64,000 nt of DNA from Escherichia coli (GCF_050920415.1 NZ_CP169309.1); one strand, 5' to 3'; counted from the stretch's first letter, positions 29,064-64,000 are shown. Notes: a model not told the origin generated them from the sequence alone. Numbers and translations: made by a program.

Positions 29064-29987
29064 TTAACGCGTTCGCTGCGAAAGCACCTGCTGCTTATCC
29101 AGCTTTTTCACCAACGGCTGCACCACCTTATCCCCATGCTGACCAAAATATTGATACAACGTATCGGACGCGCTTTTGGTGAGCACCATAATCTCAATGC
29201 GCCGGTTACCCGCGCTTTGCGGATTTTTGGCATCCAGCAGCATCTGGTCCGCCATCGCGCTCACCTGCATTACTTTATCTTCCGGCATCCCGGCGTCTTC
29301 CAGCACCCGACGGGCCGAGAGCGCGCGGTCACCCGAAAGGTTCCAGTTGTTGTAGATATTGCTTTTATAGGCCATCGCATCGGTATGCCCGGTAATAATA
29401 ATTTTGTTATCGAGCGAGTCGAATACCGGCGCGAGCTCCACCAGCAGCGTTTTAAAGAACGGCATAATCTTCGCGCTGCCGCGTTCAAACATATTGCGGT
29501 TCTGGTCATCTTTAATCAGCACGCGTAATCCCTGCGGAACAATCTCCATCTCCAGATTGGCTTCCATATGCGCATCGCGGGCGATGGTGTTGATACTGGT
29601 CGCCAGCTCGCCAAGCTCAGTGGCGGACTTCTTCTTCAGTAGCGCCGTTTTCTCGTTGACGTCGCGGGCTTTTTTCTCCGTCTCTTCCGGCACCGCCACG
29701 GTGGCAGGTTTCAGCGGATGCGTCGGGCTGATTTTATTTAACGGCGATAGCCCGCCGCCGTTGAAAATCGACTGCCCGTGCAGCGCGGCGATAATGCTTT
29801 CACGCTCGGATTTACTGACGCTGTTGACAATCCACAGCGTCATAAACAGCGCCATCATTGCCAAAGTAAAGTCGGCGAACGCCACCTTCCACGCCCCGCC
29901 GTGATGCCCGGCATGATTCTTTTTGATCTGCCGCCGGACGATGGTGGTTTTTGCCCCTCGCTCGCGGCGGTTGCCCGTCTTCCTCAT
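29064..29987 (-). CDS. lafU: Lateral-flagellar stator protein, MotB-like (OmpA-type C-terminal domain)
   Basis: Single TM helix then peptidoglycan-binding domain; start at internal ATG just after the lafT stop; last gene of Flag-2 next to dinB. Confidence 0.8.
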   Translation of the reverse strand: MRKTGNRRERGAKTTIVRRQIKKNHAGHHGGAWKVAFADFTLAMMALFMTLWIVNSVSKSERESIIAALHGQSIFNGGGLSPLNKISPTHPLKPATVAVPEETEKKARDVNEKTALLKKKSATELGELATSINTIARDAHMEANLEMEIVPQGLRVLIKDDQNRNMFERGSAKIMPFFKTLLVELAPVFDSLDNKIIITGHTDAMAYKSNIYNNWNLSGDRALSARRVLEDAGMPEDKVMQVSAMADQMLLDAKNPQSAGNRRIEIMVLTKSASDTLYQYFGQHGDKVVQPLVKKLDKQQVLSQRTR

Positions 29988-29989
29988 GC

Positions 29990-30853
29990 TTATTCTTGCT
30001 CCAGCATCGCATTCACCCACGCGTCGAGGTTGGCGAAAGTCGGTTTTGACGCCAGATGCAGCAGCTTACGCCCGGCATCCACCGCCAGCAGCGTCGGTTT
30101 GCCGCCCGCCTGCGCCACCAGCACGGTACGCACGCACTCCAGCAGCGAATGTTCCGCCCGCGCCTGCTGTTCCATGGCGTTGGCGAGCGGGTCCATCAGG
30201 CAGTAGCAGATAAAGACGCCTAAAAACGTCCCCACCAGCGCCGCCGCCACTTTCAGGCCAATCAGGGCGATAGAGCCGTCAATCGACTGCATGGTGATGA
30301 TGATGCCGAGCACTGCCGCGCAAATGCCAAACCCCGGCATCGCTTCGGCGGTACGTTGCAATGAGCGCGACGGCGTGAGCAGCGACTCTTCGGCGGTGTC
30401 CAGCTCCTGATCGAGAATGCCTTCCAGTTCATGGGCGTCGATTTTGCCCATCGCCATCAGGCGAAAGTTATCGGCAATAAAAGTCACCAGCCGCTTCTGG
30501 GTTAATATCAGCGGGTATTTCTGGAAAATGGTGCTCTCTTCCGGCTGCTCGATATGCTGATCCAGCATACGCAGGCCGCCGTTTTGCACCATTTCGAGCA
30601 ACTCATACAGACACATTAAAAGCTGACGCTGAAACTCCGGCCCGAGCTGTTTTTTACTGATCACGCCTTTAATTTGATGGGCAATCTCTTTCAGCACATG
30701 TTTTGGGTTACCAATAATCATCGCCCCGAAACCCGCGCCTAAAATAATGATCATTTCCGCCGGTTGCCAGATAGCGACTAATTGTCCACCGGCTTCAAAA
30801 TATCCGCCAAATACGCAGCCGAGCACCACCAGTAAACCTAATATTTTTTGCAT
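29990..30853 (-). CDS. lafT: Lateral-flagellar stator protein, MotA-like
   Basis: 287 aa, four TM helices with a MotA-like cytoplasmic loop. Confidence 0.85.
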   Translation of the reverse strand: MQKILGLLVVLGCVFGGYFEAGGQLVAIWQPAEMIIILGAGFGAMIIGNPKHVLKEIAHQIKGVISKKQLGPEFQRQLLMCLYELLEMVQNGGLRMLDQHIEQPEESTIFQKYPLILTQKRLVTFIADNFRLMAMGKIDAHELEGILDQELDTAEESLLTPSRSLQRTAEAMPGFGICAAVLGIIITMQSIDGSIALIGLKVAAALVGTFLGVFICYCLMDPLANAMEQQARAEHSLLECVRTVLVAQAGGKPTLLAVDAGRKLLHLASKPTFANLDAWVNAMLEQE

Positions 30854-30865
30854 GATTTCTTCACT

Positions 30866-31582
30866 TTAATTCGGATAGACAAAATCACGAATTTTCTGCG
30901 CGATCTGTTTATTCAGTTGACAAATTCGGGCCTCGGTTAGCCCTAATACCAGCGCAATTTCTTTGAGATTCATCTCATGCTGGTAATACATGGCGAGGAT
31001 CAGTTGCTCTTTTTCACTTAATTGTGAAAGCGCCTGTTGCAGCATTTGCTGAGTAATAAACTGATCTTCCAGTTCCCTGCCAGCAAGCGGAATGCCAGGC
31101 CCTTCGCCGTTCAGCAGTTCGTCAAGGCTGGCGAGCGTTTCCGCTCCTTCCAGTTGCTGATATTCGAGATAATCTTCATGCGAAATCCCTTCCACAGCCA
31201 GTTCTGACCACTCCGGTTCGTGCCCCAGTTTCTTACGCGTTTCGCGTATCAGGTCTTTCATCTGATGATATTTCTGCCGCAGCTGGCGCGGTCGCCAGTC
31301 GAGAGCGCGCAGCTCATCCAGGATCGCACCGCGAATACGGTGCACAGCATAGCCCGCAAAACCTTCATCCGGCAGCCCGTAGCGGCGAATGGCGTTAAGC
31401 AGCCCCATTAACGCCGTTTGTTCCATATCCTGACGGTCAATAATGCAGTTACATTGCGGGGCAAGTTGCCGCACCACTTTACGCACCAACGGTAAATAGG
31501 CCTGCAAATAGTGGCTCTCCTGCTGCGCGGTTAATACCGGCGCGGCAGCAAATTCTTCTGACTCGAATACGTCCTGTAGCAT
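30866..31582 (-). CDS. lafS: Lateral-flagellar sigma factor (FliA / sigma-28 family)
   Basis: 238 aa with sigma-70 regions 2 and 4; C-terminal HTH (LKEIALVLGLTEARICQLNKQ). Confidence 0.8.
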   Translation of the reverse strand: MLQDVFESEEFAAAPVLTAQQESHYLQAYLPLVRKVVRQLAPQCNCIIDRQDMEQTALMGLLNAIRRYGLPDEGFAGYAVHRIRGAILDELRALDWRPRQLRQKYHQMKDLIRETRKKLGHEPEWSELAVEGISHEDYLEYQQLEGAETLASLDELLNGEGPGIPLAGRELEDQFITQQMLQQALSQLSEKEQLILAMYYQHEMNLKEIALVLGLTEARICQLNKQIAQKIRDFVYPN

Positions 31583-31601: not shown

Positions 31602-32069
31602 TTACTGGAAGACCACTTTTTTCACCAGTAAATCCTTATACGGTGCGCTCATTTTGCGACGCTGAAGATCTTGCTTTAGCGCATCAGAAATCAGTTTGCG
31701 GATGGCAGATATTTTCATGCCACGCAAATCTTCAAATTTCATTTCCGTCAGGCATTCAACTGCAATACTTTGATACAGCGGTTCCTGATGTTTTATTTTT
31801 TCCGCCTCTTTGTCACTGGCGACCACCATGACTAACTCCGCCGACAAATAATGATCCGCGCCGTTGTTGTCATGCAGCGTGACAATGGTTTCCGGTAAGG
31901 TCACAAATACACTTTTGCTCTCATCCAGAGTTTCCACGGATTCCGTCTGCGCGGCGGCAGTCGGTTTTCCTTTTCCGGCATAGTGATGCCAGACTCCCCA
32001 TCCTGCTCCGGCACCTACCACTAACGCCAGCACGGCGCTGACCACGCCCGCCACCACGATTTTCTTCAT
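31602..32069 (-). CDS. lafF: FliL-like flagellar basal-body-associated protein
   Basis: 155 aa with N-terminal TM anchor; position between lafE and lafS. Confidence 0.7.
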   Translation of the reverse strand: MKKIVVAGVVSAVLALVVGAGAGWGVWHHYAGKGKPTAAAQTESVETLDESKSVFVTLPETIVTLHDNNGADHYLSAELVMVVASDKEAEKIKHQEPLYQSIAVECLTEMKFEDLRGMKISAIRKLISDALKQDLQRRKMSAPYKDLLVKKVVFQ

Positions 32070-32076
32070 CTTGCCT

Positions 32077-33141
32077 TTACACTTTGATTAAAACGGATTC
32101 GTTCTGTGGAAATTGAGGCGCATCGTCAAGAAGTAAGGCGGCACTCACCTCTTCCTGCTGATGGCCCGACTGTTGTTGCTGTTGCTGCGACTGCCCTTCG
32201 GAGGAGACCTGTACGTTCACCTCCATAAAATTTTGCGCCGTCAGATGCTGGCGGAGATCGTCGCTAAACTGCTGTAACGCGCGACAAACCTCGCTTTGGT
32301 TCGCGCCGAGGTGCACCGTCAGTTTGCCGTTGTCGAGTTGCACGGCGATCTCGAGCTTGCCAAGCGACGGCGGATCAAGACGTATCGTGGAGATCTGCTG
32401 TTGTTTGTTGAGCTGAAAGTGGATCTGATCTTTCAGAAGCGTCGTCAGCTTTTCGCCCAGTTCGTCCATCGAAAGCGTGGCTGGTTTGGCGACAATCTCC
32501 TGATGATCGCTGACCAGCTCCGGCGTCTTAACCTGCAACACGGCCCTCGCAATAACCGGCTCGCTGTCTGCTACTTTTTCCGTTTTACGCTCGACCTGCG
32601 GGCGCGCGGTCACGCGGTTTGGCTCAGGTTTCGGACGAGCGGGCTGTGCCGATACGCGCGGCTGCGTCGGCGCAATGGCATGTAAATCTTCACTGGCGTA
32701 AGTCGCCAGTCTGGCCTGCTGCTCCGGTTTCGCCTGTGGCAACTGGCCGACCAGCGCCTGCAACTGCGGCGGCAACGGCGTGGGCTCCTGCTGTTGCGTC
32801 GGGTATTGTGGCGCGTTTTGCGCCACCGCTTTCGTCAAGTGCTGGATAACCGGCGATGTTGCGACATTTCGCGGCTGCGGCGTGTCCTGATGCGGCGCGG
32901 CAGGTTGCGGAAGTAAGAGCGCCATTAGCGCCTGCATCGCCACCGGATCGTTCTCCTGCGGATGCGTCGCCTGTTGCTGGCTGGTTTTAGCGTTATGAAC
33001 GCGCTCTGCCACCGCGGCCACCGCCATTTTCGGCAGGGTAAACGCGGGCGCGTTTTCACCGCTCACCGACGGTAAAATATCCGCCTTCAACGACGCGGTT
33101 TCCGCAAGTGTTCCGAGCGTGGCAAGCAATGCCGGATTCAT
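32077..33141 (-). CDS. lafE: Hook-length control protein, FliK-like
   Basis: 354 aa, Pro/Gln-rich middle region and FliK-like C-terminal domain. Confidence 0.7.
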   Translation of the reverse strand: MNPALLATLGTLAETASLKADILPSVSGENAPAFTLPKMAVAAVAERVHNAKTSQQQATHPQENDPVAMQALMALLLPQPAAPHQDTPQPRNVATSPVIQHLTKAVAQNAPQYPTQQQEPTPLPPQLQALVGQLPQAKPEQQARLATYASEDLHAIAPTQPRVSAQPARPKPEPNRVTARPQVERKTEKVADSEPVIARAVLQVKTPELVSDHQEIVAKPATLSMDELGEKLTTLLKDQIHFQLNKQQQISTIRLDPPSLGKLEIAVQLDNGKLTVHLGANQSEVCRALQQFSDDLRQHLTAQNFMEVNVQVSSEGQSQQQQQQSGHQQEEVSAALLLDDAPQFPQNESVLIKV

Positions 33142-33449
33142 GACTTCTCCGATAATAAATTAACAATTGAGTAGGCCAGCACGCCTTCCTGATGGCGCTG
33201 ATGCTGTTCCATACGCGCCTTCAACACTTCTGCACGCTGCTCGCGCCGTTTAATCAGGGCATTAAACGCGCCGTACAATTGTGCTTTCACCGCACACAAC
33301 TGCGCCGCATCGGTTTCCGCCGCCGCGTAATCGTGAAACTGGCGCATCAATTGCTGATGCAGTGCCGGAAGGCGTCGCCAGCGTTGTTTATCCAGTGCCT
33401 CATTCATCGCCTCAACCAGCGCGAAAAGTTGCCTGCATTGTTTTTCCAT
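33138..33449 (-). CDS. lafD: Small helical protein, possibly FliT-like chaperone
   Basis: 103 aa helical; position between FliS-like and FliK-like genes; 4-bp overlap with lafE. Confidence 0.5.
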   Translation of the reverse strand: MEKQCRQLFALVEAMNEALDKQRWRRLPALHQQLMRQFHDYAAAETDAAQLCAVKAQLYGAFNALIKRREQRAEVLKARMEQHQRHQEGVLAYSIVNLLSEKS

Positions 33450-33453: not shown

Positions 33454-33846
33454 TTAACCCAGCTTGCCCGAAAGCCCTTCCCAGCCTTCGCGCAGGTTGC
33501 TTAAAATCAGCATCACTTCATCGATTTTCTCTGCCGACAGTTCGCCGCTGGCCTCATACAAGCGATACACACAGTGGTCATAGAGGCGTGAAAGGTTGAC
33601 CACCAGCTCGCCGCCGGTTTCAAATTCCAGCGAACTGGTGAGCGCATTGAGAATGTCGATGCATTTATTGATGCTCTGGGCTTTCTTCTCGAAACGCCGC
33701 CCTTCAATATGACTTTTGGCGCGTTCCAGCTCGTCCATCAGGCCAGAAAACAGCACCAGCACCAGTTCCAGAGGCGATGCCGCCGCTGTACGCGCCGCGA
33801 GATCGATCTCTTTATATTGCGAATAGCCATCCTGTACTTGGTACAT
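33454..33846 (-). CDS. lafC: Flagellin export chaperone FliS-like
   Basis: 130 aa, FliS-like sequence. Confidence 0.8.
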   Translation of the reverse strand: MYQVQDGYSQYKEIDLAARTAAASPLELVLVLFSGLMDELERAKSHIEGRRFEKKAQSINKCIDILNALTSSLEFETGGELVVNLSRLYDHCVYRLYEASGELSAEKIDEVMLILSNLREGWEGLSGKLG

Positions 33847-33868: not shown

Positions 33869-35185
33869 TTACGCGAATGCCGCCATGCTGGCTTTCATGG
33901 TGTACACCTCAACCAGCGTGTTGGTGTACTCCTCCAGATAACGGTCGTAGTTGGCGTTATAGGTATCGGTAAGCTGATCGCCTTCGTCCTGAATTTTGCT
34001 CATCTGATCGTCAATGTTCTGCTGGCGCAGGGTGATGATGCCGTTGCTGGAGTCCGTGTAGGTGTTAATCAGATCGTCCATCTGTGCCACCATGCTGTTG
34101 TCGCCAACGAAAATAGAGGTCAGACCGTCAGGATTTTTCGCCATTTCGTCGTTGAACTGGTCGGAGTCAATCTGTAAGTGGCCGTGAGAATCAAGCGTGA
34201 TGCCATAGTCAACAATCGACACCCCGTTGTAGCTGGCATGGGCGATATCATCGAGCTGGTTCGCCAGTGAGCTGAGTCCGGCATCACCCGCAAATACCCC
34301 GGCGCTGGTACTGTCATCACCGTGGGTGGTCAATGAATCAACCGTATCAATCAAGGTGTTATAGGCATCAACAAAGGTCTGTACTTTCTCCTGGCTGGCG
34401 CTGGAATCTTCGCTGATGTTAAAGGTAGTGAGATCGCTGTCAGAATCGCTGACTTCGGTAAAAGTCATGGTGACGCCGGGGATCACATCATCAAAGGTGT
34501 TGCTGCTATTGGTGATGGCGGGCCCCGTGGCACTGCCGAGATGAATAATCGCGTCCTGAGCGGAGGAAACATCCGTAGCAACGGGCGCGCTGGCGCTGTC
34601 GTTGCTGGCATCATGCCCCGTTACGCTCACCGAAAACGCGCTCTGCGCCCCGGTGCTATCCGAGGTGAGCATAATGGTGGTGGTGCCATCGGTTTTTACC
34701 AGTGCCGCTGAAACGCCGGGGTTATCGTCAGAGTCGTTAATCGCATTCACCAGCTCGCTGGCGTCGATAAAACCGTCGCCGTCACCGTTCTGATCCGCCG
34801 CCGCCAGGTCGATATCCATGGTGCTGTCGCCCATCGTCAGCTCGAAGGTGCCGGTAGCGGAAAAGGCGTCGTCGCCCATACTGAACGTGGTCTGCTGCCC
34901 CTGCGCCAGTTGCTCAACGAAAAATGAGTAGCTTCCCGCCTGTGCCTGCGAGTTAGCGGAAACGGTCGCTGAGTCATTATTGCTGGTGGCGGCAAATGTT
35001 ACCGGGCCGTCGGTATCGCTGTTCAGCGCATCGACGGCACTTTGAAAGTCGCTCAACGCCGAGCTGAGCGTATCCAGGCCGCTGCTTTCGGCATCCAGCT
35101 CCGTTTGCTTCTCCTGCAAATTTGCCGCCTGAGTGGCGACATCCGCATAAGCGATTTCCTGGGCAATAGTTCTTGGGTTAATCAT
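33869..35185 (-). CDS. lafB: Filament cap protein FliD-like (HAP2)
   Basis: 438 aa with FliD-type N- and C-terminal helical regions. Confidence 0.85.
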   Translation of the reverse strand: MINPRTIAQEIAYADVATQAANLQEKQTELDAESSGLDTLSSALSDFQSAVDALNSDTDGPVTFAATSNNDSATVSANSQAQAGSYSFFVEQLAQGQQTTFSMGDDAFSATGTFELTMGDSTMDIDLAAADQNGDGDGFIDASELVNAINDSDDNPGVSAALVKTDGTTTIMLTSDSTGAQSAFSVSVTGHDASNDSASAPVATDVSSAQDAIIHLGSATGPAITNSSNTFDDVIPGVTMTFTEVSDSDSDLTTFNISEDSSASQEKVQTFVDAYNTLIDTVDSLTTHGDDSTSAGVFAGDAGLSSLANQLDDIAHASYNGVSIVDYGITLDSHGHLQIDSDQFNDEMAKNPDGLTSIFVGDNSMVAQMDDLINTYTDSSNGIITLRQQNIDDQMSKIQDEGDQLTDTYNANYDRYLEEYTNTLVEVYTMKASMAAFA

Positions 35186-35216
35186 TGATGACTCCGGTTA
35201 ACGATGTCAGGTTATT

Positions 35217-35233
35217 GGCAAAAGGCGTGCCAA
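35217..35233 (-). promoter_or_regulatory. Sigma-54 (RpoN) promoter upstream of lafB
   Basis: Minus strand reads TTGGCACGCCTTTTGCC (TGGCAC-N5-TTGC); about 30 nt upstream of the lafB ATG, which has a GGAG RBS. Confidence 0.6.
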
Positions 35234-35367
35234 TATTTTTTATGTTAATAATCAATAATTTGAAAAATGGGCGGAAAGCGTGTTTCCGGTTCGGCGGAAA
35301 AGTGCCTGCCGCAAAAAGCACAACACCGCCCGCAGGCGGTATTGAGACTGATGACAAACGCAACACT

Positions 35368-35466
35368 GCCTGATGCGCTGCGCTTATCAGGCCTACAAGG
35401 TTTCTGCAATATATTGAATTTGCAATATTTTGTAGGCCGGATAAGGCGTTCACGCCGCATCCGGCA
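35368..35466. repeat. BIME: two inverted REP units between lafA and lafB
   Basis: gcctgatgcgctgcgcttatcaggcctac ... gtaggccggataaggcgttcacgccgcatccggca. Confidence 0.85.
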
Positions 35467-35474
35467 ATCCCGCA

Positions 35475-36389
35475 CTACTGCAGCAGGCTGGAAACCATGC
35501 TGGACATGCTGTTGGACTGTTTCAGCATGGTGATACCGGTCTGCATCAGCACCTGCTGTTTGGTCATGTTGGACGCTTCCGTCGCGTAGTCGGTATCCAT
35601 AATGTTGCCGATAGCGACTTCGGTGTTGTCCTGCATGCTGGTCAGGTTGTTGGCAGTGTCGTTCAGACGGTTAATAGACGCACCCAGCTTGGATTGGATC
35701 TGCGAAACATCATCCATCGCGGTAGAAATGCTGGTAATCATCTGGTTAGCTGAGCCAGACGCAGTCAGTTCAGTACCGCCAGACACGCCTGCGGTGCCCG
35801 TGGTGTCAGCCTGATCCGCACTAAAGGAGTTGCTGATAGCAGAAAGATCCGTCACCAGCGTGTTCAGTTGGCTTGAAATGTTCACGGTCATGGTATCGGA
35901 AGATTCCGCTCCCACCTGGAAAGTCACCGCGCTCTGGAACAGGCCGTCAGTACCGGTGTTGCTGGTGCCGGAAACACCGAACAGGTTGGTGCCGCCGTAA
36001 GTGGTGTTTTGCAGCATGTCAGACATCTGCTGGCCCAGTTCGTCGTATTCGTCCTGCATCGCCTGCAGGTCATCGTCGCTGTAGGTGCCGTTCGCTGCCT
36101 GAGTTGACAGGTCTTTCATACGACCCAGCACATCAGACATTTCGTCGAACATGCTGTCAGCGGTTTGCAGCATCGCCGTTGCATCATTAATGTTGCTCAG
36201 TGCCACCCCCATACCGCTGGACTGTGCAGTCAGACGGTTAGCAATCTGTTTGCCTGCGGCGTCATCGGCAGAAGAGTTAATCCGGTTACCTGTTGCCAGG
36301 CGTTCCATAGATGTAGACAAAGAAGAACTGCTTTTGCTGATTGCATTAACGGCGGCCATTGAGGCGTTATTGGTGTTAATAGATAACAT
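35475..36389 (-). CDS. lafA: Lateral flagellin
   Basis: Start at ATG preceded by AAGGAG; 304 aa; conserved flagellin N- and C-termini with Ser/Thr-rich centre; the 26 extra codons in the ORF track are upstream read-through. Confidence 0.9.
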   Translation of the reverse strand: MLSINTNNASMAAVNAISKSSSSLSTSMERLATGNRINSSADDAAGKQIANRLTAQSSGMGVALSNINDATAMLQTADSMFDEMSDVLGRMKDLSTQAANGTYSDDDLQAMQDEYDELGQQMSDMLQNTTYGGTNLFGVSGTSNTGTDGLFQSAVTFQVGAESSDTMTVNISSQLNTLVTDLSAISNSFSADQADTTGTAGVSGGTELTASGSANQMITSISTAMDDVSQIQSKLGASINRLNDTANNLTSMQDNTEVAIGNIMDTDYATEASNMTKQQVLMQTGITMLKQSNSMSSMVSSLLQ

Positions 36390-36874
36390 GATACTGCTCC
36401 TTGGGATTAATCGTTTTCGTTTCGATACCCTGTAAAAACGACACCTCAGGCGCAAACTTAAAATCACTATGAAAAAAATTTCGCCACGTATTATCCGATG
36501 CCACTTTTAGCTAAAAAAAGCAGAGGTTAAATTCAGATAAAAAGATTATTAGCAATATCTGCCACATGGCCAGGTATCAAAATATGTCTTTATCAATTGC
36601 TTGATATAGTTAAGATTGTCATCAATTAACGCGTTTTCTTCACAATGTACTGATGCCAAAATTTACATTGCGTTGCAAATAGTACACATTTGGCTATTGT
36701 ACCTGTCCTGTCATTTCGTTACATTCCCACGCCATATAGTGATTAAGAATAATCCTATTACCATAAAATATTAATTATCACGCAGAAAAATCATCTTCTC
36801 AGGGACGTATAAGACTGTGCTTTATGTAAAGCACTATCAGGAACCATTTATCCCTTGCTAAGGTAAACTCAACT

Positions 36875-40988: not shown

Positions 40989-41051
40989 GTTGGATCCTTA
41001 CCGGTAAATCGTGCCGGATAAAAGCGGCGTGAAGTTGGGGATTCTTAAGTG

Positions 41052-52353: not shown

Positions 52354-52430
52354 CGCGAATACCTTCCCCATAGCGGAAACGGATTTTCCGCCTGATTTCC
52401 AATCCTTTGTTTTTGATTAAAAAAATTCCC

Positions 52431-52445
52431 GGCACGCTTATTGCA
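52431..52445 (+). promoter_or_regulatory. Sigma-54-type promoter upstream of the 309-aa hypothetical gene
   Basis: GGCACGCTTATTGCA (GG-N10-GC spacing, TTGCA -12 element) about 35 nt before the ATG at 52480. Confidence 0.45.
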
Positions 52446-52479
52446 CATCCTGCACAGCATTAAAGACTGGAAGCCACCT

Positions 52480-53409: not shown

Positions 53410-53416
53410 GTCGCTC

Positions 53417-53553
53417 TGTGCGCGCTTTGCCCTCACCCCGGCCCTCTCCCACAGGGAGAGGGAGAAACCCTGCGCCCAATTCAGCACCGCGCTCGATCGG
53501 TCCCCTCGCCCCTTCGGGGAGAGGGTTAGGGTGAGGGACATCAGCGCGCGCAT
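53417..53553. repeat. MITE-like composite palindromic repeat, copy C (inverted relative to A and B)
   Basis: Reverse complement of the copy A/B core: ccctcaccccggccctctcccacagggagaggg ... ggggagagggttagggtgaggg with gcgcgc ends. Confidence 0.7.
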
Positions 53554-53596
53554 TCAGCACCTCCATCACATTCACCCACTAACTCACCCAAACACC

Positions 53597-56041: not shown

Positions 56042-56052
56042 ACCGCAGAAGT

Positions 56053-56150
<98 letters not shown>

Positions 56151-56367
56151 CGAACAGCGCACTTATCTACCCTTCGATTTTAAATACATCTCTTTATGGC
56201 TGGTGAATCGGTAAAGTCGTAGATTGTGGGGGAGCGATCTTTATGAATTCTGAAAAAACCCTGAATCTTGCTAAACATATTGCTTATCATAAATATAGGT
56301 TACACACTATAAAAATTACTGCGTAATTTAACATCTTGCCTAAAAATGATAGAGCGTAAACGATAAT

Positions 56368-57189
56368 ATGACTTCTGATAAAAAAGTAACTTCCGGTACG
56401 ACAAGCCAGAAACAAAACAACATTGTCACTCAAAAAATATCACGCCAGAAGGAATTGTTTCTATTATTTTGGGTTGATGAGTCCGATGATAGCCGACGTT
56501 CTATTTTTGAAGAAGCATGTCTGACGCGTTATTTCAATATCCTTTATTCCCCCGAGTATAAAAAAGAAACACAGATAGTTTATCATTTATCAATTAACAC
56601 ATTTAATCAAATCAAAGAAATATTAGAAATCTTTATAAACAAGAATGGAGGTAAAACTAAAGCAAAGGTTAAAGAAGTCAGTTTATTCTCACATGGGGGG
56701 CCAATTCATGGTCCTACAACCTCAAACTCTATAAATACACCTTCCGTGCCTAAATACCCACAACAAATGGACATATCCGGAGGATGGGATTCAATTGATT
56801 TTAACTGGTCAAACAATGCTATGTTTGTTATGTATGGTTGTCGCACTAGTTATGCAAGTGATGATTCAGGACAAGGTTTTGCCAGTAAATTATCCCTATT
56901 AGATAATTTTAAGGACGTGAATGTCTGGGGTCAAACAGAAAGTACTTATCCATCTTATTTCCCAGATATCAGGACAACGTCGATTATGAGGTCAATAAAT
57001 ATAGGTTGGTCTTTTTCACCAACATATATGGTTGCCAATTCTGAAGGTCAAGGATGGGATGCATTATTCCCGGATAATCGAAATCCATTAAAAGCTCTCC
57101 CTATGCAGTGTTATAATAATGGGACATTGATTTTAACCTGCGATCAAAGCAATTTTAATGATCACCGGAAGAATAAATCAAATGATTAG
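56368..57189 (+). CDS. Hypothetical protein in AT-rich DNA, no assignable domain (candidate toxin/effector of a two-gene cassette)
   Basis: 273 aa single long ORF in strongly AT-rich DNA; no signal peptide; possible His...Cys pair (FSHGGPIHG ... MYGCRTS); weak RBS. Confidence 0.55.
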   Translation: MTSDKKVTSGTTSQKQNNIVTQKISRQKELFLLFWVDESDDSRRSIFEEACLTRYFNILYSPEYKKETQIVYHLSINTFNQIKEILEIFINKNGGKTKAKVKEVSLFSHGGPIHGPTTSNSINTPSVPKYPQQMDISGGWDSIDFNWSNNAMFVMYGCRTSYASDDSGQGFASKLSLLDNFKDVNVWGQTESTYPSYFPDIRTTSIMRSINIGWSFSPTYMVANSEGQGWDALFPDNRNPLKALPMQCYNNGTLILTCDQSNFNDHRKNKSND

Positions 57190-57721
57190 CATTGTATTGA
57201 GAAGCTTTATTTTATTATTCATAATAATAGTGTATCCGGATTATAATAAAAACCCACCTGCCTTTGAAGTATATGGGGAAAATGACATACTTAAGGATAT
57301 GGTTATTAATATGAAAACTTATAGATACCATAGTAAGGAAAACTCTTCCCCCACAGCTATAGTGCAAACCATCCTTTTTAAAGGAAATATACAGCAAGTT
57401 TTTGAAAGCAATGACATGGGTGGTGCGAGCTTCTTTTTTTCTTATAATAATAAGGTTGAAACGCTGGTAACAGACGCTTTCTTTTTAAATAAAAAATTAG
57501 ACAAACTGCATGATGCAAATATTTTTGAGGTTATAAAGCATAAGGAAAACATCGTTATTAGATATTACAAGTGCAAAATTGAATATATGCAAAGAGAAAA
57601 ATTTATCGAAATAGAGATATCAACAAACAAAAATAGTTATTTTAACAAGAATGGAATAAAACAAAAAGATACAAATAAATATAACACATATTTCTTCAAT
57701 TACTTTGAGTCTCAAAAATAA
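57182..57721 (+). CDS. Hypothetical protein with N-terminal hydrophobic anchor, AT-rich (candidate immunity/partner protein)
   Basis: ATG overlaps the stop of the upstream gene (ATGATTAG); N-terminal SIVLRSFILLFIIIVY hydrophobic segment; Asn/Lys/Tyr-rich; alternative start at 57158. Confidence 0.5.
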   Translation: MISIVLRSFILLFIIIVYPDYNKNPPAFEVYGENDILKDMVINMKTYRYHSKENSSPTAIVQTILFKGNIQQVFESNDMGGASFFFSYNNKVETLVTDAFFLNKKLDKLHDANIFEVIKHKENIVIRYYKCKIEYMQREKFIEIEISTNKNSYFNKNGIKQKDTNKYNTYFFNYFESQK

Positions 57722-57724
57722 ATT

Positions 57725-58129
57725 TTATTTTGTCATGCGCGCCCTCCTAATCACCTCAATAATCCCCGTCGTCGACACCGACGGCGTGCGGGGGAAATAG
57801 ACCACCTCACAAATATACGCGAAGCTATCAAACTTCCCTGCCCAGTCATCGCCCATCACCAAAACATCCGCACTGTACCCCCGCAGATATTCCGCTTTCT
57901 GCGCCAGCGATTCCTCGAGAAATACGCCATCCACGCACGCCAGCCCGGCGATAATCGCCATGCGGTCATCCTGAGGGTAAACCGGTGCCCTGCCCTTTTT
58001 GGCAATATTTAAGGCGTCGGACGACACGCCAACCAGCAGCCGTTCGCCCAGCGTGCGGGCGCGTTGTAAAAGGCGCAGATGACCGACATGAAACACATCG
58101 AAGGTGCCGAAGGTGATGACCGTTTTCAT
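57725..58129 (-). CDS. Cytidylyltransferase, TagD-like (glycerol-3-phosphate cytidylyltransferase family)
   Basis: N-terminal FGTFDVFHVGH nucleotidyltransferase motif; about 134 aa; ATG 2 nt after the lfiJ stop with a GGAG RBS inside the lfiJ 3-prime end. Confidence 0.8.
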   Translation of the reverse strand: MKTVITFGTFDVFHVGHLRLLQRARTLGERLLVGVSSDALNIAKKGRAPVYPQDDRMAIIAGLACVDGVFLEESLAQKAEYLRGYSADVLVMGDDWAGKFDSFAYICEVVYFPRTPSVSTTGIIEVIRRARMTK

Positions 58130-58131: not shown

Positions 58132-58566
58132 CTACTCCGCTAATTTGTGCCGTAGCCAGCACTGAACGGCGATGTCATCCACCGCTTTTTGCGCTTTCGC
58201 CGTGGCACTTTCTTGCTGCTCGCGGCGTTTGTCATCCAGCGTCAGGGCCACCACTTTCTCTTCGCATGCCGCCGCCGTCAGGTTTTTCTGCATTCGCGTA
58301 GCCTTGATGTTAGCCAGCGTTTTTTCCTGCTCCTGCCAGGCGATCACTTTGCGCAAGGTGCCTTTGTAGCCGCTGACGTTTTTCAGCGATTCCACCGACG
58401 CCGCCGCGCCCGCAGATGTTTTCTCCACCAGGTAGCCTAACGCTTTGATATTGTTGTCATAGCCCGCGCAAATCTGTTTTTGCTTTGCCAGCTCGACGGT
58501 TTTGTCTTTGACCGATTTATCCCGCAGGCGCTGCAATTGCGCGAGGGTGTCGATGATTTGTCGCAT
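58132..58566 (-). CDS. lfiJ: FliJ-like flagellar export protein
   Basis: 144 aa coiled-coil protein immediately downstream of the FliI-like ATPase. Confidence 0.65.
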   Translation of the reverse strand: MRQIIDTLAQLQRLRDKSVKDKTVELAKQKQICAGYDNNIKALGYLVEKTSAGAAASVESLKNVSGYKGTLRKVIAWQEQEKTLANIKATRMQKNLTAAACEEKVVALTLDDKRREQQESATAKAQKAVDDIAVQCWLRHKLAE

Positions 58567-58568
58567 AG

Positions 58569-59906
58569 TTACTGTTCTGCCTTTTTGGCACCAGGAAAGA
58601 GGATTTGCAGGCGGCTTTGTACCAGTTCGAGGGAGGCGGGTTCGCGCATCTCCTGGCGTAAAAATCGCTCGATGGCCGGGAACATTTTCACCGCTTTGTC
58701 GACGCTGGCATCCGCGCCTGCCACGTAGCCACCGAGTGGGATCAGCGGTTTGATCTCCATATAGGCGGCGTAGTTTTGCTTTAACGCGCGAGCGGATTGC
58801 TGATGTTCCGGGCGGGTGACCTGGTTCATGCAGCGGCTGATCGACTGGCCGATATCGATGGCCGGATAGTGCCCCGCTTCCGCCAGTTTGCGGGTTAATA
58901 CGATATGCCCGTCCAGCACCGCGCGGGCGCAGTCGACGATGGGATCTTGCTGGTCGTCGCCTTCCGCCAGCACGGTGTAGATGGCAGTCATCGATCCCGC
59001 GCTTTCGCTGTTGCCTGCGCTTTCGACCAGTTTGGGGATCATGCCGAATGCCGACGGCGGATAGCCTTTGGTAGCGGGCGGTTCGCCAAGAGAGAGCGCA
59101 ATTTCACGCTGCGCCATCGCATAGCGGGTCAGGGAATCCACCAGCAGCAAAACGTGATGCCCGCGGTCGCGAAACCAGGCGGCGATGGAGTGACACAGTT
59201 CGGTGGCTTTCAGGCGCATCAGCGGCGATTCATCGGCGGGCGCGACGACGACGATAGACTTCGCCAGCCCGTCCGCGCCCAAGGAATGGTCGATAAACTC
59301 TTTCACTTCGCGCCCGCGTTCTCCTATCAGCCCAACCACCACAATATCGGCTTTAGTCTGGCGGGTGATCATCCCCAGCAGCACGCTTTTCCCGACGCCG
59401 CTACCCGCCATTAGCCCGACGCGCTGGCCTTTGCCGATGGTCAGCAGACCGTTGATCGCTTTCACACCCACGTCTAAGGGTTCGTCCACCGAACGGCGGG
59501 TTAAGGGATTGACCGAGGGCGGCAACGGCGGCAGAAGGTCGTTGCCGTTCAGGCGGCCTTTACCATCCAGCGGTTCGCCGAGGCCATTCACCACGCGGCC
59601 TAACCAGCTTTCGCCTATCAGGATGTCGTGGGCTTTTTCTTCCGGGAAGACACGCGCCCCCGCCATCAGGCCGACCGGCTGTTTAAACGGCATTAAATAG
59701 GTGATGTCACGATTAAAGCCCACGGCCTGCGCGTCAATTAGCGTGTGATTAGCGCTTTCGATGCGGCACAACTGCCCGGTCATTAATGGGCAGCCGACGC
59801 TCTCCAGCAGAATGCCGTTCAGGCGCACCAGCCGTCCGGCGACGCGAGCCAGCGGGATCGACTCCAGCGAACGCAGGGCGTTATCGAAAGCAGAAAAATC
59901 ACTCAC
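58569..59906 (-). CDS. lfiI: Flagellum-specific ATPase FliI-like
   Basis: 445 aa with Walker A GSGVGKS and Walker B. Confidence 0.9.
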   Translation of the reverse strand: MSDFSAFDNALRSLESIPLARVAGRLVRLNGILLESVGCPLMTGQLCRIESANHTLIDAQAVGFNRDITYLMPFKQPVGLMAGARVFPEEKAHDILIGESWLGRVVNGLGEPLDGKGRLNGNDLLPPLPPSVNPLTRRSVDEPLDVGVKAINGLLTIGKGQRVGLMAGSGVGKSVLLGMITRQTKADIVVVGLIGERGREVKEFIDHSLGADGLAKSIVVVAPADESPLMRLKATELCHSIAAWFRDRGHHVLLLVDSLTRYAMAQREIALSLGEPPATKGYPPSAFGMIPKLVESAGNSESAGSMTAIYTVLAEGDDQQDPIVDCARAVLDGHIVLTRKLAEAGHYPAIDIGQSISRCMNQVTRPEHQQSARALKQNYAAYMEIKPLIPLGGYVAGADASVDKAVKMFPAIERFLRQEMREPASLELVQSRLQILFPGAKKAEQ

Positions 59907-60609
59907 TCTGCGTCTCCGGCGTCAGCGTCTCTTGCAGTGCGGTCATGCATTGTTCAAGGCGATGCTCGCAGCCGATGTCCAGTTCTGATTTATCGGTGAT
60001 CACCCGGCATTCCCCCGGCGGCAAATCCGGCGAAGGCGTCAGCCCCCATTCGCTGACCTTTTCCGGCACCGCGTCGCGCAGGCGGTTAAACTCTTCCGTG
60101 CTCAGCATCACTTGCAGGGTTTCCGGCATCGCCGGGAAGGCCGCCAGCGCCTCTTCCACCAGCGCCAGTAACTGCGTCGGTTGCAGCGCCAGTTCGCAGC
60201 GGATCACCTGGCGGGTGACTTTCTCCACCAGTTGCAGCAAATCTTCCCGCTGTTTACGTTCGATATGGGCGAGGAAGTCGTTCACTTTTCCAGTGATGGC
60301 TTCCAGCGGCTGCGCTGCCTCAACAAACTGCTTGCGCCCTTCCTGCTGCCCGGCGAGGCTGCCTTCGGTGTAGCCCTGACGTCGCCCCTCGGCAAAACCT
60401 TGCTGATGACCTTCGCTAAAGCCCTGCTCCTGACCCTCGGTCATGCCCTGAGCAAACCCTTTTTGCAGTCCTTCCTGAAAACCATCCATCAACTGGCGCT
60501 GGTAATCGGCGGCGCTAATGCTGGCAGTGAGCGGTTCTCCGGTCACCGCACGCTGACGCGGCGGGAAACGGTGCAGGCGATAGCGCCCGCGCAGTGTTTC
60601 AATGGTCAT
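59899..60609 (-). CDS. lfiH: FliH-like export apparatus protein
   Basis: 236 aa with Glu/Gln-rich repeats typical of FliH; overlaps the lfiI start. Confidence 0.7.
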   Translation of the reverse strand: MTIETLRGRYRLHRFPPRQRAVTGEPLTASISAADYQRQLMDGFQEGLQKGFAQGMTEGQEQGFSEGHQQGFAEGRRQGYTEGSLAGQQEGRKQFVEAAQPLEAITGKVNDFLAHIERKQREDLLQLVEKVTRQVIRCELALQPTQLLALVEEALAAFPAMPETLQVMLSTEEFNRLRDAVPEKVSEWGLTPSPDLPPGECRVITDKSELDIGCEHRLEQCMTALQETLTPETQSE

Positions 60610-60612
60610 GGG

Positions 60613-61623
60613 TTACTCCGCCGTCTGTTCCGCAAAGAGCTGTAGCTGAAGTTCGCCCGCCTCTTCCAGTTCACGGGCGATACCCATGATTTCGCGGCGG
60701 ATCTGTTCGATACGGCTGACCGGCACCGGCCCCAGGCGCGCGGTAATTGCTTCCAGTTGCTGCACCTGACGTTTTGGCATCACCGCGTAAATGGAGCGAC
60801 GCAGCAGAGCTTCGGTGCCTTTCAGCGCCACCGCCCAGTCTTCCATTGGCACTTCGTCGAGCAGGCGACGGCGCACCTCTTCGTTCTGGCGGCTGAGAAT
60901 AAAGAAGTCGTACATCTCATCCTGGAGCTGCTCCAGCACGTCTTCGTCGCGCTCGCGCATCTGGTCGAGGATCACCTGCTGGTTTCCCTGGAAGCGGTTG
61001 ACAATATCCGCCGCCTGTTTGATGCCCTTCACCTTCGAGCCATGCTCTGAAAGCACCGACAGGCCGCGTTCGATCAGACGATCCAGTTCATCCACCACAT
61101 CGCGGTTGACGTCGTTGAGTTTTGCTACCCGGTAAAGAATTTCGTTTTGCACCGATTCGTTGAGATAAGAGAGCACCGCCGCCGAGATTTCCGGCGTCAG
61201 AAACGCGAGGAACACCGCCTGCAATTGCAGATGTTCTTCGGAGATCAGCATCGCCAGCTGGCGCGGTTCCACCCATTGCAGGCGCGCCATCCGCGAGCGG
61301 ATCTCATCGCCGTAGATGCCGTTGATCACGCTGCTGGCGATCTCGGTGCCCAACGCCTTGTTAAGAATGCCCTGCAACATGGAGCGCGACGCACCGTTGA
61401 TCCCGCTCTGTTCGCGGAACTCATCAAAGAAGTTATTGATCACCTTGCGCGCCATGCTGGTTTTGACGCCGGAAAGCCGCGCCATGTTTTCGCTCAGGCG
61501 CACTACTTCTTCGCGGCTGAGTTTTTGCATCACCGTTGCCGCTGCTTCTTCGCCCAGACACAGTAGCAGGATCGCCGCCTGTTCGAGGTAGCTGTTGCTC
61601 TTATTTATTGTCAATTCGCTCAT
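60613..61623 (-). CDS. lfiG: Rotor/switch protein FliG-like
   Basis: FliG-like sequence; start placed at internal ATG (MSELTINKSNSYLEQAAILLL...), overlapping the lfiF 3-prime end; start uncertain. Confidence 0.8.
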   Translation of the reverse strand: MSELTINKSNSYLEQAAILLLCLGEEAAATVMQKLSREEVVRLSENMARLSGVKTSMARKVINNFFDEFREQSGINGASRSMLQGILNKALGTEIASSVINGIYGDEIRSRMARLQWVEPRQLAMLISEEHLQLQAVFLAFLTPEISAAVLSYLNESVQNEILYRVAKLNDVNRDVVDELDRLIERGLSVLSEHGSKVKGIKQAADIVNRFQGNQQVILDQMRERDEDVLEQLQDEMYDFFILSRQNEEVRRRLLDEVPMEDWAVALKGTEALLRRSIYAVMPKRQVQQLEAITARLGPVPVSRIEQIRREIMGIARELEEAGELQLQLFAEQTAE

Positions 61624-63247
61624 TGCTGGTAATCCATTGTCTGAGAACTTCGGCAACGCGATCGGTGTCGCTCATGGCCAGTTTTTGCAGGAACTCGAGT
61701 TTCACTTCGAGGCCAGAACTCTGGGACGGCAGGCTGTCATCGCCAGGCAGCGACGGCAGGTCGACATTTTTACGCTCCTCTTCCGGCACGGCGATCCACG
61801 GTTCGCTGATGGCTTCCGGTTCTGGTGTGATAACCGGCGCACGTACCGCCGTCAGTCGTTTCATCAGCGGGCGCACCACAAAGAACAGCAGCAACAGGGC
61901 CAGCAGGCCGCAGCCAATCAGCCGCACCCACGCCAGTACGCTGTCATCTTTCCACAGTGGAATAACCGGTTCGACAGGCACCGCCTGCGGCACAAAGTTG
62001 AGCAGTGATAAGGTGAGATTGTCACCACGCTGGGCGTCGATTCCGGCGGCATTGTTCAGCAACGCGGTCAGTTGCGTGGTTTGCTCCGGCTTCCAGTTTT
62101 TCAGCGCCGGGGCGTTTTGATTGAGCACCACCGCCACGTTGAGGCGTTTCACCGCAAAGCCGGGATGCTGAATATGCTGGACGCTGCGGTCGTAAGAGTA
62201 GTCGCGCTTACTTTCGCTGTGTTTGGAAAGCGCTTCCGGCGAGCGGTTTTCTTCCGCACCGTTGGTCATCTGATTCGCTGCAATCGGCGGACGGTTACTG
62301 AGCGAACCGGGCACGCCCATCGCCACCTGATTGGTGTCGCTGTCCAGCACGCTCTCTTCGCGGTTGATTTTCGGCGCGTCACCGTAGTGTTCCTGGGTTT
62401 CGTCGATGGTGCTGAGGTCGAGATCCGGCATCACGCTGACGCGGTAATTCCCGCTGCCAACCAGCGAATCCAGTACGTTCGCCACGCTGGCACGGGTTTT
62501 GTCCTGAATGTCTTTGAGGATCTGATCGCGTTTACGGGTCGCGGCAGAAACCGCCTCGCCCGCGCCAATGCCGTCGGTCAGCAGATTTCCCGCCTGATCG
62601 ACGACGCTGACTTTGCTGGCCTGTAGCCCTGGAATACTGCCGGACACCAGATGCACAATGGCGTTCACCTGGTCCATATTCAGTTTCGCGCCGTAATGCA
62701 AGCGCACCACCACCGAGGCACTGTTTTGCGGCTCATCGCTGACCACAAACGAGCTTTCTTCGTTAAGCGCCAGATGCACCCGCGCGCTCTCCACCGCGTC
62801 CAGCGACATGATGCTCTGCGCCAGCTCCCCTTCGAGACTGCGTTTATAGCGCACGTTCTGCATGAACTGACTGCTGCCGAGCACTTCGTCTTTGTCCATC
62901 AGCTCGTAGCCGCTGGGCAATATCGCCTGCACGCCTTTGGCGGCAAGGGTCATGCGCGTTTTCGACAGTTCGTCTTCCGGCACCAGTATCTGCCCGCTTT
63001 GCGGGTCGATGCGGTAGGTGAGCTTTTCGCCGTCCAGCACGGTGACAATCTGCGACACGGGCAGATTTTCCTGGCGTCCGTAGAGCGAGACGTAGCCGCG
63101 ATTCCCCGTCCACAGCACGCTAACGATAATCGCCGTTGCCGCAACGGCAAGCCCCACTCCCGCCATCAACGCCCAGCGTTTGTTATCTGCGAGACGCAGT
63201 CGAAACGCCGGAAACGCCTGGGTTAACTTCTTTATTTGTGCATTCAT
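61601..63247 (-). CDS. lfiF: MS-ring protein FliF-like
   Basis: 548 aa with N- and C-terminal TM helices and a periplasmic ring domain. Confidence 0.85.
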   Translation of the reverse strand: MNAQIKKLTQAFPAFRLRLADNKRWALMAGVGLAVAATAIIVSVLWTGNRGYVSLYGRQENLPVSQIVTVLDGEKLTYRIDPQSGQILVPEDELSKTRMTLAAKGVQAILPSGYELMDKDEVLGSSQFMQNVRYKRSLEGELAQSIMSLDAVESARVHLALNEESSFVVSDEPQNSASVVVRLHYGAKLNMDQVNAIVHLVSGSIPGLQASKVSVVDQAGNLLTDGIGAGEAVSAATRKRDQILKDIQDKTRASVANVLDSLVGSGNYRVSVMPDLDLSTIDETQEHYGDAPKINREESVLDSDTNQVAMGVPGSLSNRPPIAANQMTNGAEENRSPEALSKHSESKRDYSYDRSVQHIQHPGFAVKRLNVAVVLNQNAPALKNWKPEQTTQLTALLNNAAGIDAQRGDNLTLSLLNFVPQAVPVEPVIPLWKDDSVLAWVRLIGCGLLALLLLFFVVRPLMKRLTAVRAPVITPEPEAISEPWIAVPEEERKNVDLPSLPGDDSLPSQSSGLEVKLEFLQKLAMSDTDRVAEVLRQWITSNERIDNK

Positions 63248-63251
63248 AGGG

Positions 63252-63593
63252 TTAGATCGACATACTCATCAGATCGTTAAATCCGGTGGCGATTTTGTTG
63301 CGCACCTGCACCAGCGCGGAGAAAGAAAGCGACGCCTGCTGGCTGGCGATCATCGCCCCGGCGAGGTCATCACTTTTGCCCGTGTCGACAGCCGTTTGCT
63401 GCTGCTCCGCCACCTGCTGGAACTGGTCAACGTGACCGAGCGCGCCGGACATAATGCGATTAAACGACACGTCCGGGTCGGTGGAACTGAAGGTCATGGC
63501 GGGTAGCACTGGCGCCTGGGCGTTGGCCTGCATCCGCTGCACGTCCTGCATAATTTGCGCCTGCATGGTGCTGTTGATTGTGGTAATGCTCAT
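63252..63593 (-). CDS. lfiE: Hook-basal body protein FliE-like
   Basis: 113 aa FliE-like; upstream of lfiF. Confidence 0.75.
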   Translation of the reverse strand: MSITTINSTMQAQIMQDVQRMQANAQAPVLPAMTFSSTDPDVSFNRIMSGALGHVDQFQQVAEQQQTAVDTGKSDDLAGAMIASQQASLSFSALVQVRNKIATGFNDLMSMSI

Positions 63594-63607
63594 TTTTAAC
63601 TTCCGGG

Positions 63608-64000
63608 TCAGGAGAAAACTTCGATACCGTGCTTGCGCATGGAGGCCAGTCGATAGCGCAGGGCGCGCGGGGTAATGCCTAACAAGTCGGCGATTTTGCT
63701 GCGGTTGCCCTGATATTTACGCATCAGGTCGGCGATATATTGATACTGCGCGCTTCGTCCGTGCTGGCCTAAATCACCGGTTTCGGCAATGTGGACGGCG
63801 GGCTGAACAGGCCATTGCAGATCGCTGTGGTCTGCAATATCGGTGTCCGGCAGGCCTAATGCATCCGGGTAAATTACGCCGTCGCGATTTAAAATCATTC
63901 CCCGCTGAATGGCGTTTTCCAGTTGACGCACGTTACCGGGCCAGCGGTAATTAAGCAGCGCGCGGCGGGTGGATTCGGACAGGGTGATATTTTTCACCAG
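63608..64000 (-). CDS. lafK: Sigma-54-dependent transcriptional activator, 3-prime fragment (5-prime end outside the window)
   Basis: C-terminal AAA+ signature (PGNVRQLENAIQRGMIL) and Fis-type HTH (KIADLLGITPRALRYRLASMRK); open to the window edge. Confidence 0.75.
   Translation of the reverse strand: MVKNITLSESTRRALLNYRWPGNVRQLENAIQRGMILNRDGVIYPDALGLPDTDIADHSDLQWPVQPAVHIAETGDLGQHGRSAQYQYIADLMRKYQGNRSKIADLLGITPRALRYRLASMRKHGIEVFS

Follow-up and report, generated by a model that had tools for sequence, protein, structure and literature searches.

An Escherichia coli Flag-2 lateral-type flagellar locus with a restriction-modification cassette and an apparent in-frame deletion in lfgL

Based on open reading frames (ORFs), protein family matches and genome comparisons, we assign positions 29064-64000 of a 64,000-nucleotide stretch of the Escherichia coli chromosome (GCF_050920415.1, NZ_CP169309.1; the whole stretch is hereafter called the window) to the dinB-proximal ~35 kb of the chromosomal Flag-2 locus, the lateral-type, second flagellar gene set of this species; from its sequence this identity appears virtually certain. 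The explanation that we favour as a whole, to which we give a probability of roughly 0.8, combines this identity with a proposed sigma-54/sigma-28 regulatory scheme, a restriction-modification (R-M) cassette carried as cargo, and a predicted lesion in lfgL, the gene for the hook-filament junction protein. The first description of Flag-2 reportedly came from strain 042 (Ren et al. 2005). Published accounts already cover the locus and where it lies, the K-12 remnant, the variable regions and the EcoRII/Dcm cargo; the sole unreported item is the strain-private lfgL lesion, whose reality is uncertain and whose interest is modest. In the window the locus runs from lafU to lfiE and the 3' 390 nt of lafK, in the order lafU-T-S-F-E-D-C-B-A, lafZ, lafW, lfgL-K-J-I-H-G-F-E-D-C-B, lfgA, lfgM-N, lfiJ-I-H-G-F-E and lafK, with the following core features.

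29064-29987, minus strand: lafU, MotB-like stator protein of 307 amino acids (Pfam MotB_plug and OmpA; NCBIfam LafU equivalog at 571 bits against a cutoff of 383)
29990-30853, minus strand: lafT, MotA-like stator protein of 287 amino acids (Pfam MotA_N, MotA_ExbB)
30866-31582, minus strand: lafS, FliA-type sigma-28 factor of 238 amino acids (Pfam Sigma70 regions 2 and 4; FliA/WhiG family annotation in the sister genome)
31602-32069, minus strand: lafF, FliL-like (Pfam FliL)
32077-33141, minus strand: lafE, FliK-like hook-length control protein (Pfam Flg_hook)
33138-33449, minus strand: lafD, FliT-like (no Pfam match; homologue annotated FliT in strain 2020CK-00188)
33454-33846, minus strand: lafC, FliS (Pfam FliS)
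33869-35185, minus strand: lafB, FliD cap (Pfam FliD_N, FliD_C)
35475-36389, minus strand: lafA, lateral flagellin of 304 amino acids (Pfam Flagellin_N, Flagellin_C; annotated "lateral flagellin LafA")
36875-37717, plus strand: lafZ, ToxR/CadC-like membrane-bound regulator of 280 amino acids (Pfam Trans_reg_C at residues 25-97; best NCBIfam match CadC)
37776-38753, minus strand: lafW, Flag-2-specific, putative hook-associated protein of 325 amino acids (a core Flag-2 gene according to PMC6993521)
38770-39597, minus strand: lfgL, FlgL/HAP3 hook-filament junction protein, 275 instead of 309 amino acids (Pfam Flagellin_N and Flagellin_C)
39612-47739, minus strand: lfgK, J, I, H, G, F, E, D, C and B, for hook-associated protein, rod, rings, hook and hook cap (Pfam match for each gene; all open)
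47821-48558, plus strand: lfgA, P-ring chaperone of 245 amino acids (Pfam ChapFlgA)
51634-51912, plus strand: lfgM, anti-sigma-28 factor (Pfam FlgM)
51925-52353, plus strand: lfgN, chaperone (Pfam FlgN)
58132-63593, minus strand: lfiJ, I, H, G, F and E, for the export ATPase complex, the rotor/switch protein FliG, the MS ring and FliE (Pfam match for each gene)
63608-64000, minus strand: 3' part of lafK, sigma-54-dependent activator, cut by the window end (Pfam AAA_lid_14 and HTH_8)

ORF listing and translation from 29064 to the window end found all 31 complete core ORFs open, free of stops and frameshifts. Every core ORF save LafD and LafW matched its expected Pfam family, with E-values from 1e-4 (the FlgB rod motif) to 1e-133 (FlgI); these two proteins occupy their canonical places, and a related genome annotates them as FliT and a hook-associated protein. 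LafW has no match in Pfam, NCBIfam or PADLOC. A survey of Flag-2 in 592 Enterobacterales genomes established a three-cluster architecture (De Maayer et al. 2020, PMC6993521), and the window holds clusters 3 and 2 together with the lfiE-J part of cluster 1. For cluster 3 (lafWZABCDEFSTU) and cluster 2 (lfgNMABCDEFGHIJKL), all 25 genes are present, in canonical order and open. By their Pfam domains, the system-specific regulators LafK, LafS, LfgM and LafZ are all encoded; LafZ has an N-terminal winged helix (residues 25-97), a single transmembrane segment (144-162) and then a C-terminal domain. The gap between lafW and lafZ measures 58 bp and is free of cargo. Next to the lafU end, at a spacing of 71 nt, lies dinB (27938-28993), and the sequence places Flag-2 here at its usual site between dinB and yafL.

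The far end of the locus can be read in the chromosome of Escherichia coli MFDS1022581 (NZ_CP169399.1; the sister genome), which is 99.98% identical to window positions 16601-64000 and differs within the locus range by seven substitutions and one 102-bp gap. Beyond the point where the window stops, it carries the full lafK (328 amino acids), lfiM, lfiN, lfiP, lfiQ, lfiR, lfhB and lfhA, followed by hicAB-yafL. The genes lafK, lfiMNPQR and lfhBA bear no pseudogene flags there and all have the expected Pfam domains; the full LafK has its Sigma54_activat domain from residue 6 and no receiver domain. The window itself holds lfiE-J and the 3' 129 codons of lafK, and the other seven genes were observed in the sister genome alone. 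Two of the seven substitutions alter a protein: at 38326, residue 143 of LafW is Leu in the window and Pro in the sister, and at 54990, residue 465 of the glycosyltransferase is Ser in the window and Tyr in the sister. A third, at 52446, falls one base past a predicted sigma-54 site upstream of lafV. In K-12 MG1655, the pseudogenes lfhA' and lafU' between rayT/yafL and dinB are all that is left of Flag-2; these stubs align to window 27938-29835 and to the distal lfhA of the sister genome with a 15-bp overlap, so that the K-12 deletion spans about 39.7 kb. A preliminary description of this DNA had reported a Flag-2-type cluster beside dinB, equated it with the E. coli Flag-2 locus, noted the K-12 remnants beside dinB and placed the export-gate and C-ring genes past the window end. 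Its coordinates and gene list agree with the ORFs and with Pfam and NCBIfam, the gene order is that of strain 042 and of the Enterobacterales three-cluster architecture (PMC6993521), MG1655 has the two pseudogenes, and the missing genes were indeed found in the 99.98% identical genome.

Flag-2 DNA is present at at least 80% coverage in 1,274 of 5,426 complete E. coli genomes (1,274-1,280 across searches; ~23%). The window's copy is only ~94% identical in nucleotide sequence to most of these, a value that had suggested horizontal import; this was rejected, as the flanking core genes proA-dinB (window 16814-29000) are likewise only ~95% identical to almost all of the ~5,400 complete E. coli genomes. 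With flanks as divergent as the locus, the host appears to belong to a divergent Escherichia lineage, and Flag-2 here looks vertically inherited. The sequence leaves two ways of reading the flank: the host may belong to such a lineage, or the proA-dinB segment may itself be a recombinant import. This segment reaches at least 99% identity in the sister genome and only one other record; many genomes match window 1-16700, where the ecp and pao genes lie, at 97-99% identity.

According to the preliminary description, all genes of the cluster were intact. This holds for stops and frameshifts in the 31 complete core genes, but not for lfgL, which carries a 102-bp in-frame deletion. Compared with the sister genome, 34 codons are missing; both ends of the gap lie in copies of CCGCCA, a 6-bp microhomology, with the junction at 39330-39335. 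A 201-bp probe over the missing segment was complete in 1,274 of the 1,274 E. coli genomes having lfgL, and a 301-bp probe across the window's junction aligned as two pieces, ~100 bp further apart, in all 30 best-ranked genomes. Both sister assemblies carry an intact lfgL. The deletion is private to this strain among the E. coli copies examined.

Such a distribution raises the question of whether the gap is real. The shortened protein, whether read from the ATG start (275 amino acids) or a GTG start (283 amino acids), has no record among 153 billion gene positions in an exact-protein look-up, lfgL has its full 309 codons on a 5.8-kb contig of an independent short-read assembly that shares the lafW allele of the window, and the closest genome, otherwise 99.98% identical, has the full gene as well; all this would fit a sequencing or assembly artefact that hides a 309-codon gene. 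However, a clean in-frame loss between two CCGCCA copies is what replication slippage or illegitimate recombination typically leaves behind, the flanks lack long repeats of the kind that assemblers collapse, and the window differs from its sister in other respects too, with its seven substitutions in the locus and the absence of a 61.6-kb prophage. We regard an artefact as quite improbable.

If the deletion is real, its position argues for a severe effect. The lost segment is almost invariant (RDDLLEAANGTNTA..SL.SLGQDI) among the 120 nearest LfgL protein clusters, drawn from Escherichia and Citrobacter at 85-98% identity, and is missing in none of them. In Salmonella FlgL (junction structure 9go6) it aligns with a conserved block, and it also aligns with the solved chain 3pwx, which is deposited as a putative flagellar hook-associated protein and gave LfgL its best match in the PDB (E = 8e-32). 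The Pfam Flagellin_N match of the window's LfgL covers model positions 1-85 of 139 at 34.6 bits, compared with 1-136 at 56 bits for the intact sister LfgL. In the AlphaFold model of intact LfgL, residues 43-98 and 104-125 form the two long N-terminal D1 helices, with a predicted local distance difference test (pLDDT) score of ~90 over residues 81-120; the deletion (residues 90-123) deprives the first helix of its final nine residues and the second of 20 out of 22, and takes the loop between them as well. In terms of domain D1, the loss on this model covers the end of helix ND1a, almost the whole of helix ND1b and the NGT loop. Held against the complete flagellin-type N-terminal D0, ND1a and ND1b regions and C-terminal helical regions that characterize FlgL/HAP3, the window's LfgL is incomplete. 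We find it reasonably likely, from the model and the sequence, that the 34-codon deletion (delta-34) abolishes LfgL function and that the hook-filament junction would be unable to assemble; the prediction that no junction forms draws on what is established about flgL mutants and about D1 domains in the flagellin family. If Flag-2 is expressed, a cell with the delta-34 copy would build hook-basal bodies and export LafA, and no filaments would polymerise.

The opposite view is that Flag-2 is here fully intact and potentially functional, the short LfgL doing its work and lateral flagella appearing under the right surface or viscosity signal. It can point to 31 of 31 complete core genes without stops or frameshifts, to a deletion that is an exact multiple of three and leaves the terminal D0/D1 regions in place with Flagellin_N and Flagellin_C still matched, and to an lfgC that is intact, unlike that of strain 042. 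We nevertheless judge it improbable: the 34 lost residues are nearly invariant in the 120 related clusters, among which no natural LfgL does without the segment; they make up a confidently modelled D1 helix that aligns to conserved FlgL in solved junction structures; and the allele, found in no other of ~1,270 E. coli loci, resembles damage of recent origin more than a variant that cells tolerate. It is very unlikely that delta-34 is real and LfgL still assembled, which would make it a natural junction protein without helix ND1b; if so, helix ND1b would be dispensable, or the Flag-2 junction would be built unlike that of Salmonella.

A different objection makes the state of lfgL irrelevant, by supposing that Flag-2 is a silent relic nearing loss or is kept for a non-motility role such as secretion or adhesion. 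In E. coli ST131 strain EC958, an intact Flag-2 gave neither LafA nor Flag-2 motility under laboratory conditions (PMC4637896). Moreover, the locus has been deleted from about three quarters of E. coli and accumulates cargo, for example repeat elements and the R-M cassette; a possible secretion role was also raised in the published comparative study (PMC6993521). Against this stand the 31 complete core ORFs, still open at ~94% nucleotide identity to other lineages, gene lengths equal to those of a second lineage except for lfgL, and conserved promoter motifs; open frames and conserved promoter motifs together suggest that purifying selection continued until very recently. Relic status strikes us as possible, though on the unlikely side.

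As to how the locus would be controlled, we propose a scheme of LafK/sigma-54 followed by LafS/sigma-28, drawn from gene content, promoter motifs and the laf systems of Vibrio and Aeromonas; we hold it to be quite likely. In Vibrio parahaemolyticus the laf genes are governed by such a LafK/sigma-54, then LafS/sigma-28, cascade. The promoter-like elements on which the scheme draws are the following.

47776-47791, minus strand: predicted sigma-54 promoter of the lfgB operon, TGGCACAGCGATTGCT, a perfect match to the consensus TGGCAC-N5-TTGC ~37 nt upstream of the lfgB ATG
35232-35217, minus strand: sigma-54-type promoter upstream of lafB, TGGCACGCCTTTTGCC, one mismatch, correct orientation
52430-52445, plus strand: sigma-54-type site upstream of lafV, CGGCACGCTTATTGCA, one mismatch, correct orientation
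36435-36461, minus strand: candidate sigma-28 (LafS) promoter of lafA, TTAAGTTT-N11-GTCGTTTT, motif common to the lfgM upstream region
51570-51597, plus strand: candidate sigma-28 promoter of lfgM, TAAAGTTT-N12-ACCGCTTT, motif common to the lafA upstream region

The site upstream of lfgB is the only zero-mismatch sigma-54 site in the 64-kb window and is kept in L005. Sites with at most one mismatch number 11 in the window against 3.6 expected, and those of lfgB, lafB and lafV are all three conserved in the second lineage. From these sigma-54 promoters LafK, a receiver-less sigma-54 activator, would switch on the lfgB, lafB and lafV-glycosyltransferase operons, the lafB operon also supplying the sigma-28 factor LafS. 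As LafK starts directly with the sigma-54 interaction domain, control is probably exerted at the level of lafK expression. LfgM would restrain LafS until the hook-basal body is complete, whereupon LafS would transcribe lafA and lfgMN; LafT and LafU would make up the stator. A motif of the TAAAGTTT type with a CG-T-rich -10 occurs within the window only upstream of lafA and lfgM, which is suggestive of sigma-28 control. The E. coli Flag-1 sigma-28 consensus, TAAAGTTT-N11-GCCGATAA, gave no convincing site upstream of lafA, where the -10 motif is a relaxed one only.

Several points weigh against the explanation that we favour. The sigma-28 motif was derived post hoc from two sites, and 7 of 100 shuffles give at least two matches; between lafK and lfiM, the sister genome yielded no sigma-54 site. 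The export-gate genes are known from the sister genome and not from the window's own sequence. As for lfgL, the gap could be an assembly error, and even a real deletion, being in frame, could leave a shortened LfgL that folds and works, its effect being a prediction. Finally, by analogy with EC958, Flag-2 may be silent regardless of lfgL, and a second set of flagella or motility from the window's Flag-2 remains putative.

Between lafA and lafB, the control region combines several elements.

35186-35474, minus strand: lafA-lafB intergenic control region with REP/BIME element, intrinsic terminator and sigma-54-type promoter
35431-35389, minus strand: Rfam ES036 match, at the centre of a REP/BIME-type repeat
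35344-35321, minus strand: predicted strong intrinsic terminator after lafA, with a 10-bp stem

Read 3' of lafA, the order is REP-type element, terminator and lafB sigma-54 site. RefSeq places in this stretch, at 35178-35453, a 91-amino-acid hypothetical ORF (WP_237710166.1 in the sister genome), which has no family match in Pfam or NCBIfam; as the stretch consists of the REP element, the terminator and the sigma-54 promoter, we rejected it as a gene, and the 91 codons are probably not one. A specific small RNA under the name ES036 was likewise rejected, the match being the central motif of a REP-flanked repeat element; the Rfam family itself seems to represent a piece of a repeat element and not a small RNA in its own right. 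Elsewhere inside the locus a ~125-bp GC-rich palindromic repeat with CCCTCTCCC...GGGAGAGGG arms is present in three copies, 84-88% alike (41071-41196, 43346-43473 and 53418-53537); they sit in the lfgK-lfgJ gap, in the lfgH-lfgG gap and upstream of the glycosyltransferase gene. This repeat family probably accounts for the median of 31 short extra megablast matches per genome. The repeats could act as intra-operon RNA stabilisers or attenuators.

In its gene list, the preliminary description passed over ~8.7 kb of cargo and non-core DNA, namely a Dcm and EcoRII cassette and a flagellin-modification island. The cassette comprises the following features.

48564-51565, no strand assigned: 3,002-bp cargo cassette, delimited by alignment to a cassette-free locus
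48747-50171, plus strand: C5 cytosine methyltransferase of 474 amino acids (Pfam DNA_methylase 4e-79, DNA_meth_N 2e-26; PADLOC MTase_II)
50258-51463, minus strand: EcoRII-family endonuclease (Pfam EcoRII-N 1e-59, EcoRII-C 8e-71; PADLOC REase_II)

It lies between lfgA and the lfgM promoter and is selfish or defence cargo, not a flagellar part. Through it, the lfgA-lfgM spacing is 3,075 bp compared with 80 bp without it; the insert, with a GC content of 37-41%, has taken the place of 5 bp, and 4 bp separate its end from the TAAAGTTT (-35) element upstream of lfgM. The same site is occupied in 28 of 1,278 Flag-2-bearing genomes, and EcoRII/Dcm cargo has already been reported in 21 Escherichia strains (PMC6993521). 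As in other EcoRII/Dcm type II R-M systems, an EcoRII-N/EcoRII-C endonuclease is convergent with a C5 methyltransferase having a Dcm-type N-terminal domain; what differs is that the cassette is chromosomal, inside a flagellar locus. It is too diverged from K-12 dcm for a megablast match. From family membership, the cassette would recognise and protect CCWGG.

Variable region 1, between lfgN and lfiJ, contains five modification or unknown genes spanning 52480-58129.

52430-58129, no strand assigned: variable region 1 including the sigma-54-type site
52480-53409, plus strand: lafV, FliB-like lysine methylase (weak NCBIfam match, 43.8 bits; lysine-N-methylase annotation in a relative)
53597-56041, plus strand: GT2 glycosyltransferase of 814 amino acids with an N-terminal GT2 domain (Pfam)
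56368-57189 and 57182-57721, plus strand: two overlapping low-GC ORFs of 273 and 179 amino acids (GC 35% and 28%)
57725-58129, minus strand: TagD-like glycerol-3-phosphate cytidylyltransferase (Pfam/NCBIfam)

GT2, TagD and LafV have been described for this region (PMC6993521). LafV, the GT2 enzyme and the TagD-like enzyme would modify flagellin, and the promoter-like site at 52430-52445 suggests that lafV and the GT2 gene may be direct LafK/sigma-54 targets. The ORFs at 56368-57721 gave no convincing match in Pfam, NCBIfam or PADLOC; the cargo of a related strain at the corresponding position is wholly different, comprising ISAs1 transposases, a peptidoglycan-binding protein and a GNAT fragment.

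Compared with other E. coli Flag-2 loci (PMC6993521), the window's copy shares the position of lafU at the dinB side (and, in the sister genome, that of lfhA at the yafL side), the three clusters and their gene order, the specific genes lafK, lafW, lafZ and lafV, and a variable region 1 with GT2, TagD and LafV between lfiJ and lfgN. It differs in its ~94% identity to most copies, in an apparently divergent host lineage, in having no lafW-lafZ cargo, in the 34-codon lfgL deletion found in this copy alone, and in an intact lfgC, the gene being frameshifted in strain 042 (PMC4637896). With the laf systems of Vibrio parahaemolyticus and Aeromonas hydrophila it has in common that it is a separate second system, without chemotaxis genes, that encodes the sigma-54 activator LafK together with a MotAB-type stator, a sigma-28 factor and an anti-sigma factor of its own. 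In contrast to these, LafK here (328 amino acids) lacks a receiver-like domain at its N-terminus, the window showed no motY, and LafZ, LafW and the modification island are enterobacterial features; moreover, neither motility nor expression has been demonstrated for the E. coli system (PMC4637896). Relative to Flag-1 of E. coli and Salmonella, there are one-to-one counterparts of flgA-N, fliD-T, fliE-J, fliK, fliL, fliA and motAB, and LfgL aligns end to end with Salmonella FlgL (9go6). However, Flag-2 is gathered in one locus rather than three or more, its proposed control is by sigma-54/LafK rather than FlhDC, and its flagellin is short (304 amino acids) and devoid of outer domains.

Further differences lie outside the locus. 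Window 1-16641 matches the MFDS1022581 chromosome ~61.6 kb further upstream; at the tRNA-Thr beside proA (window 16600-16700), that genome has a lambdoid prophage of ~61.6 kb with integrase, Q antiterminator and lysis genes, which is missing from the window's genome, so that the attachment site at 16600-16700 appears to be empty. Directly after dinB comes yafP (window 27489-28993), without the yafN-yafO toxin-antitoxin pair that K-12 has between them, and at the opposite end of the locus hicAB in the sister genome takes the place of K-12's dinJ-yafQ and rayT. The window also has intact copies of prfH (release factor H) and its rtcB-family partner (25421-27171), which in K-12 are the pseudogenes ykfJ and prfH. 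An ERIC-type repeat, matched with 1-2 mismatches by each of the two ERIC PCR primer sequences, is located at 27227-27270.

These results correct an annotation, the 91-codon "hypothetical protein" between lafA and lafB being most probably a REP element, a terminator and a promoter, and they offer a predicted, testable sigma-54/sigma-28 promoter map for a system whose expression has never been demonstrated in E. coli. If real, the lfgL deletion would be a lesion of recent date, private to one strain, and would fit a continuing decay of a locus no longer present in three quarters of E. coli. Whether Flag-2 is ever expressed would best be asked in the sister strains, whose lfgL is intact.

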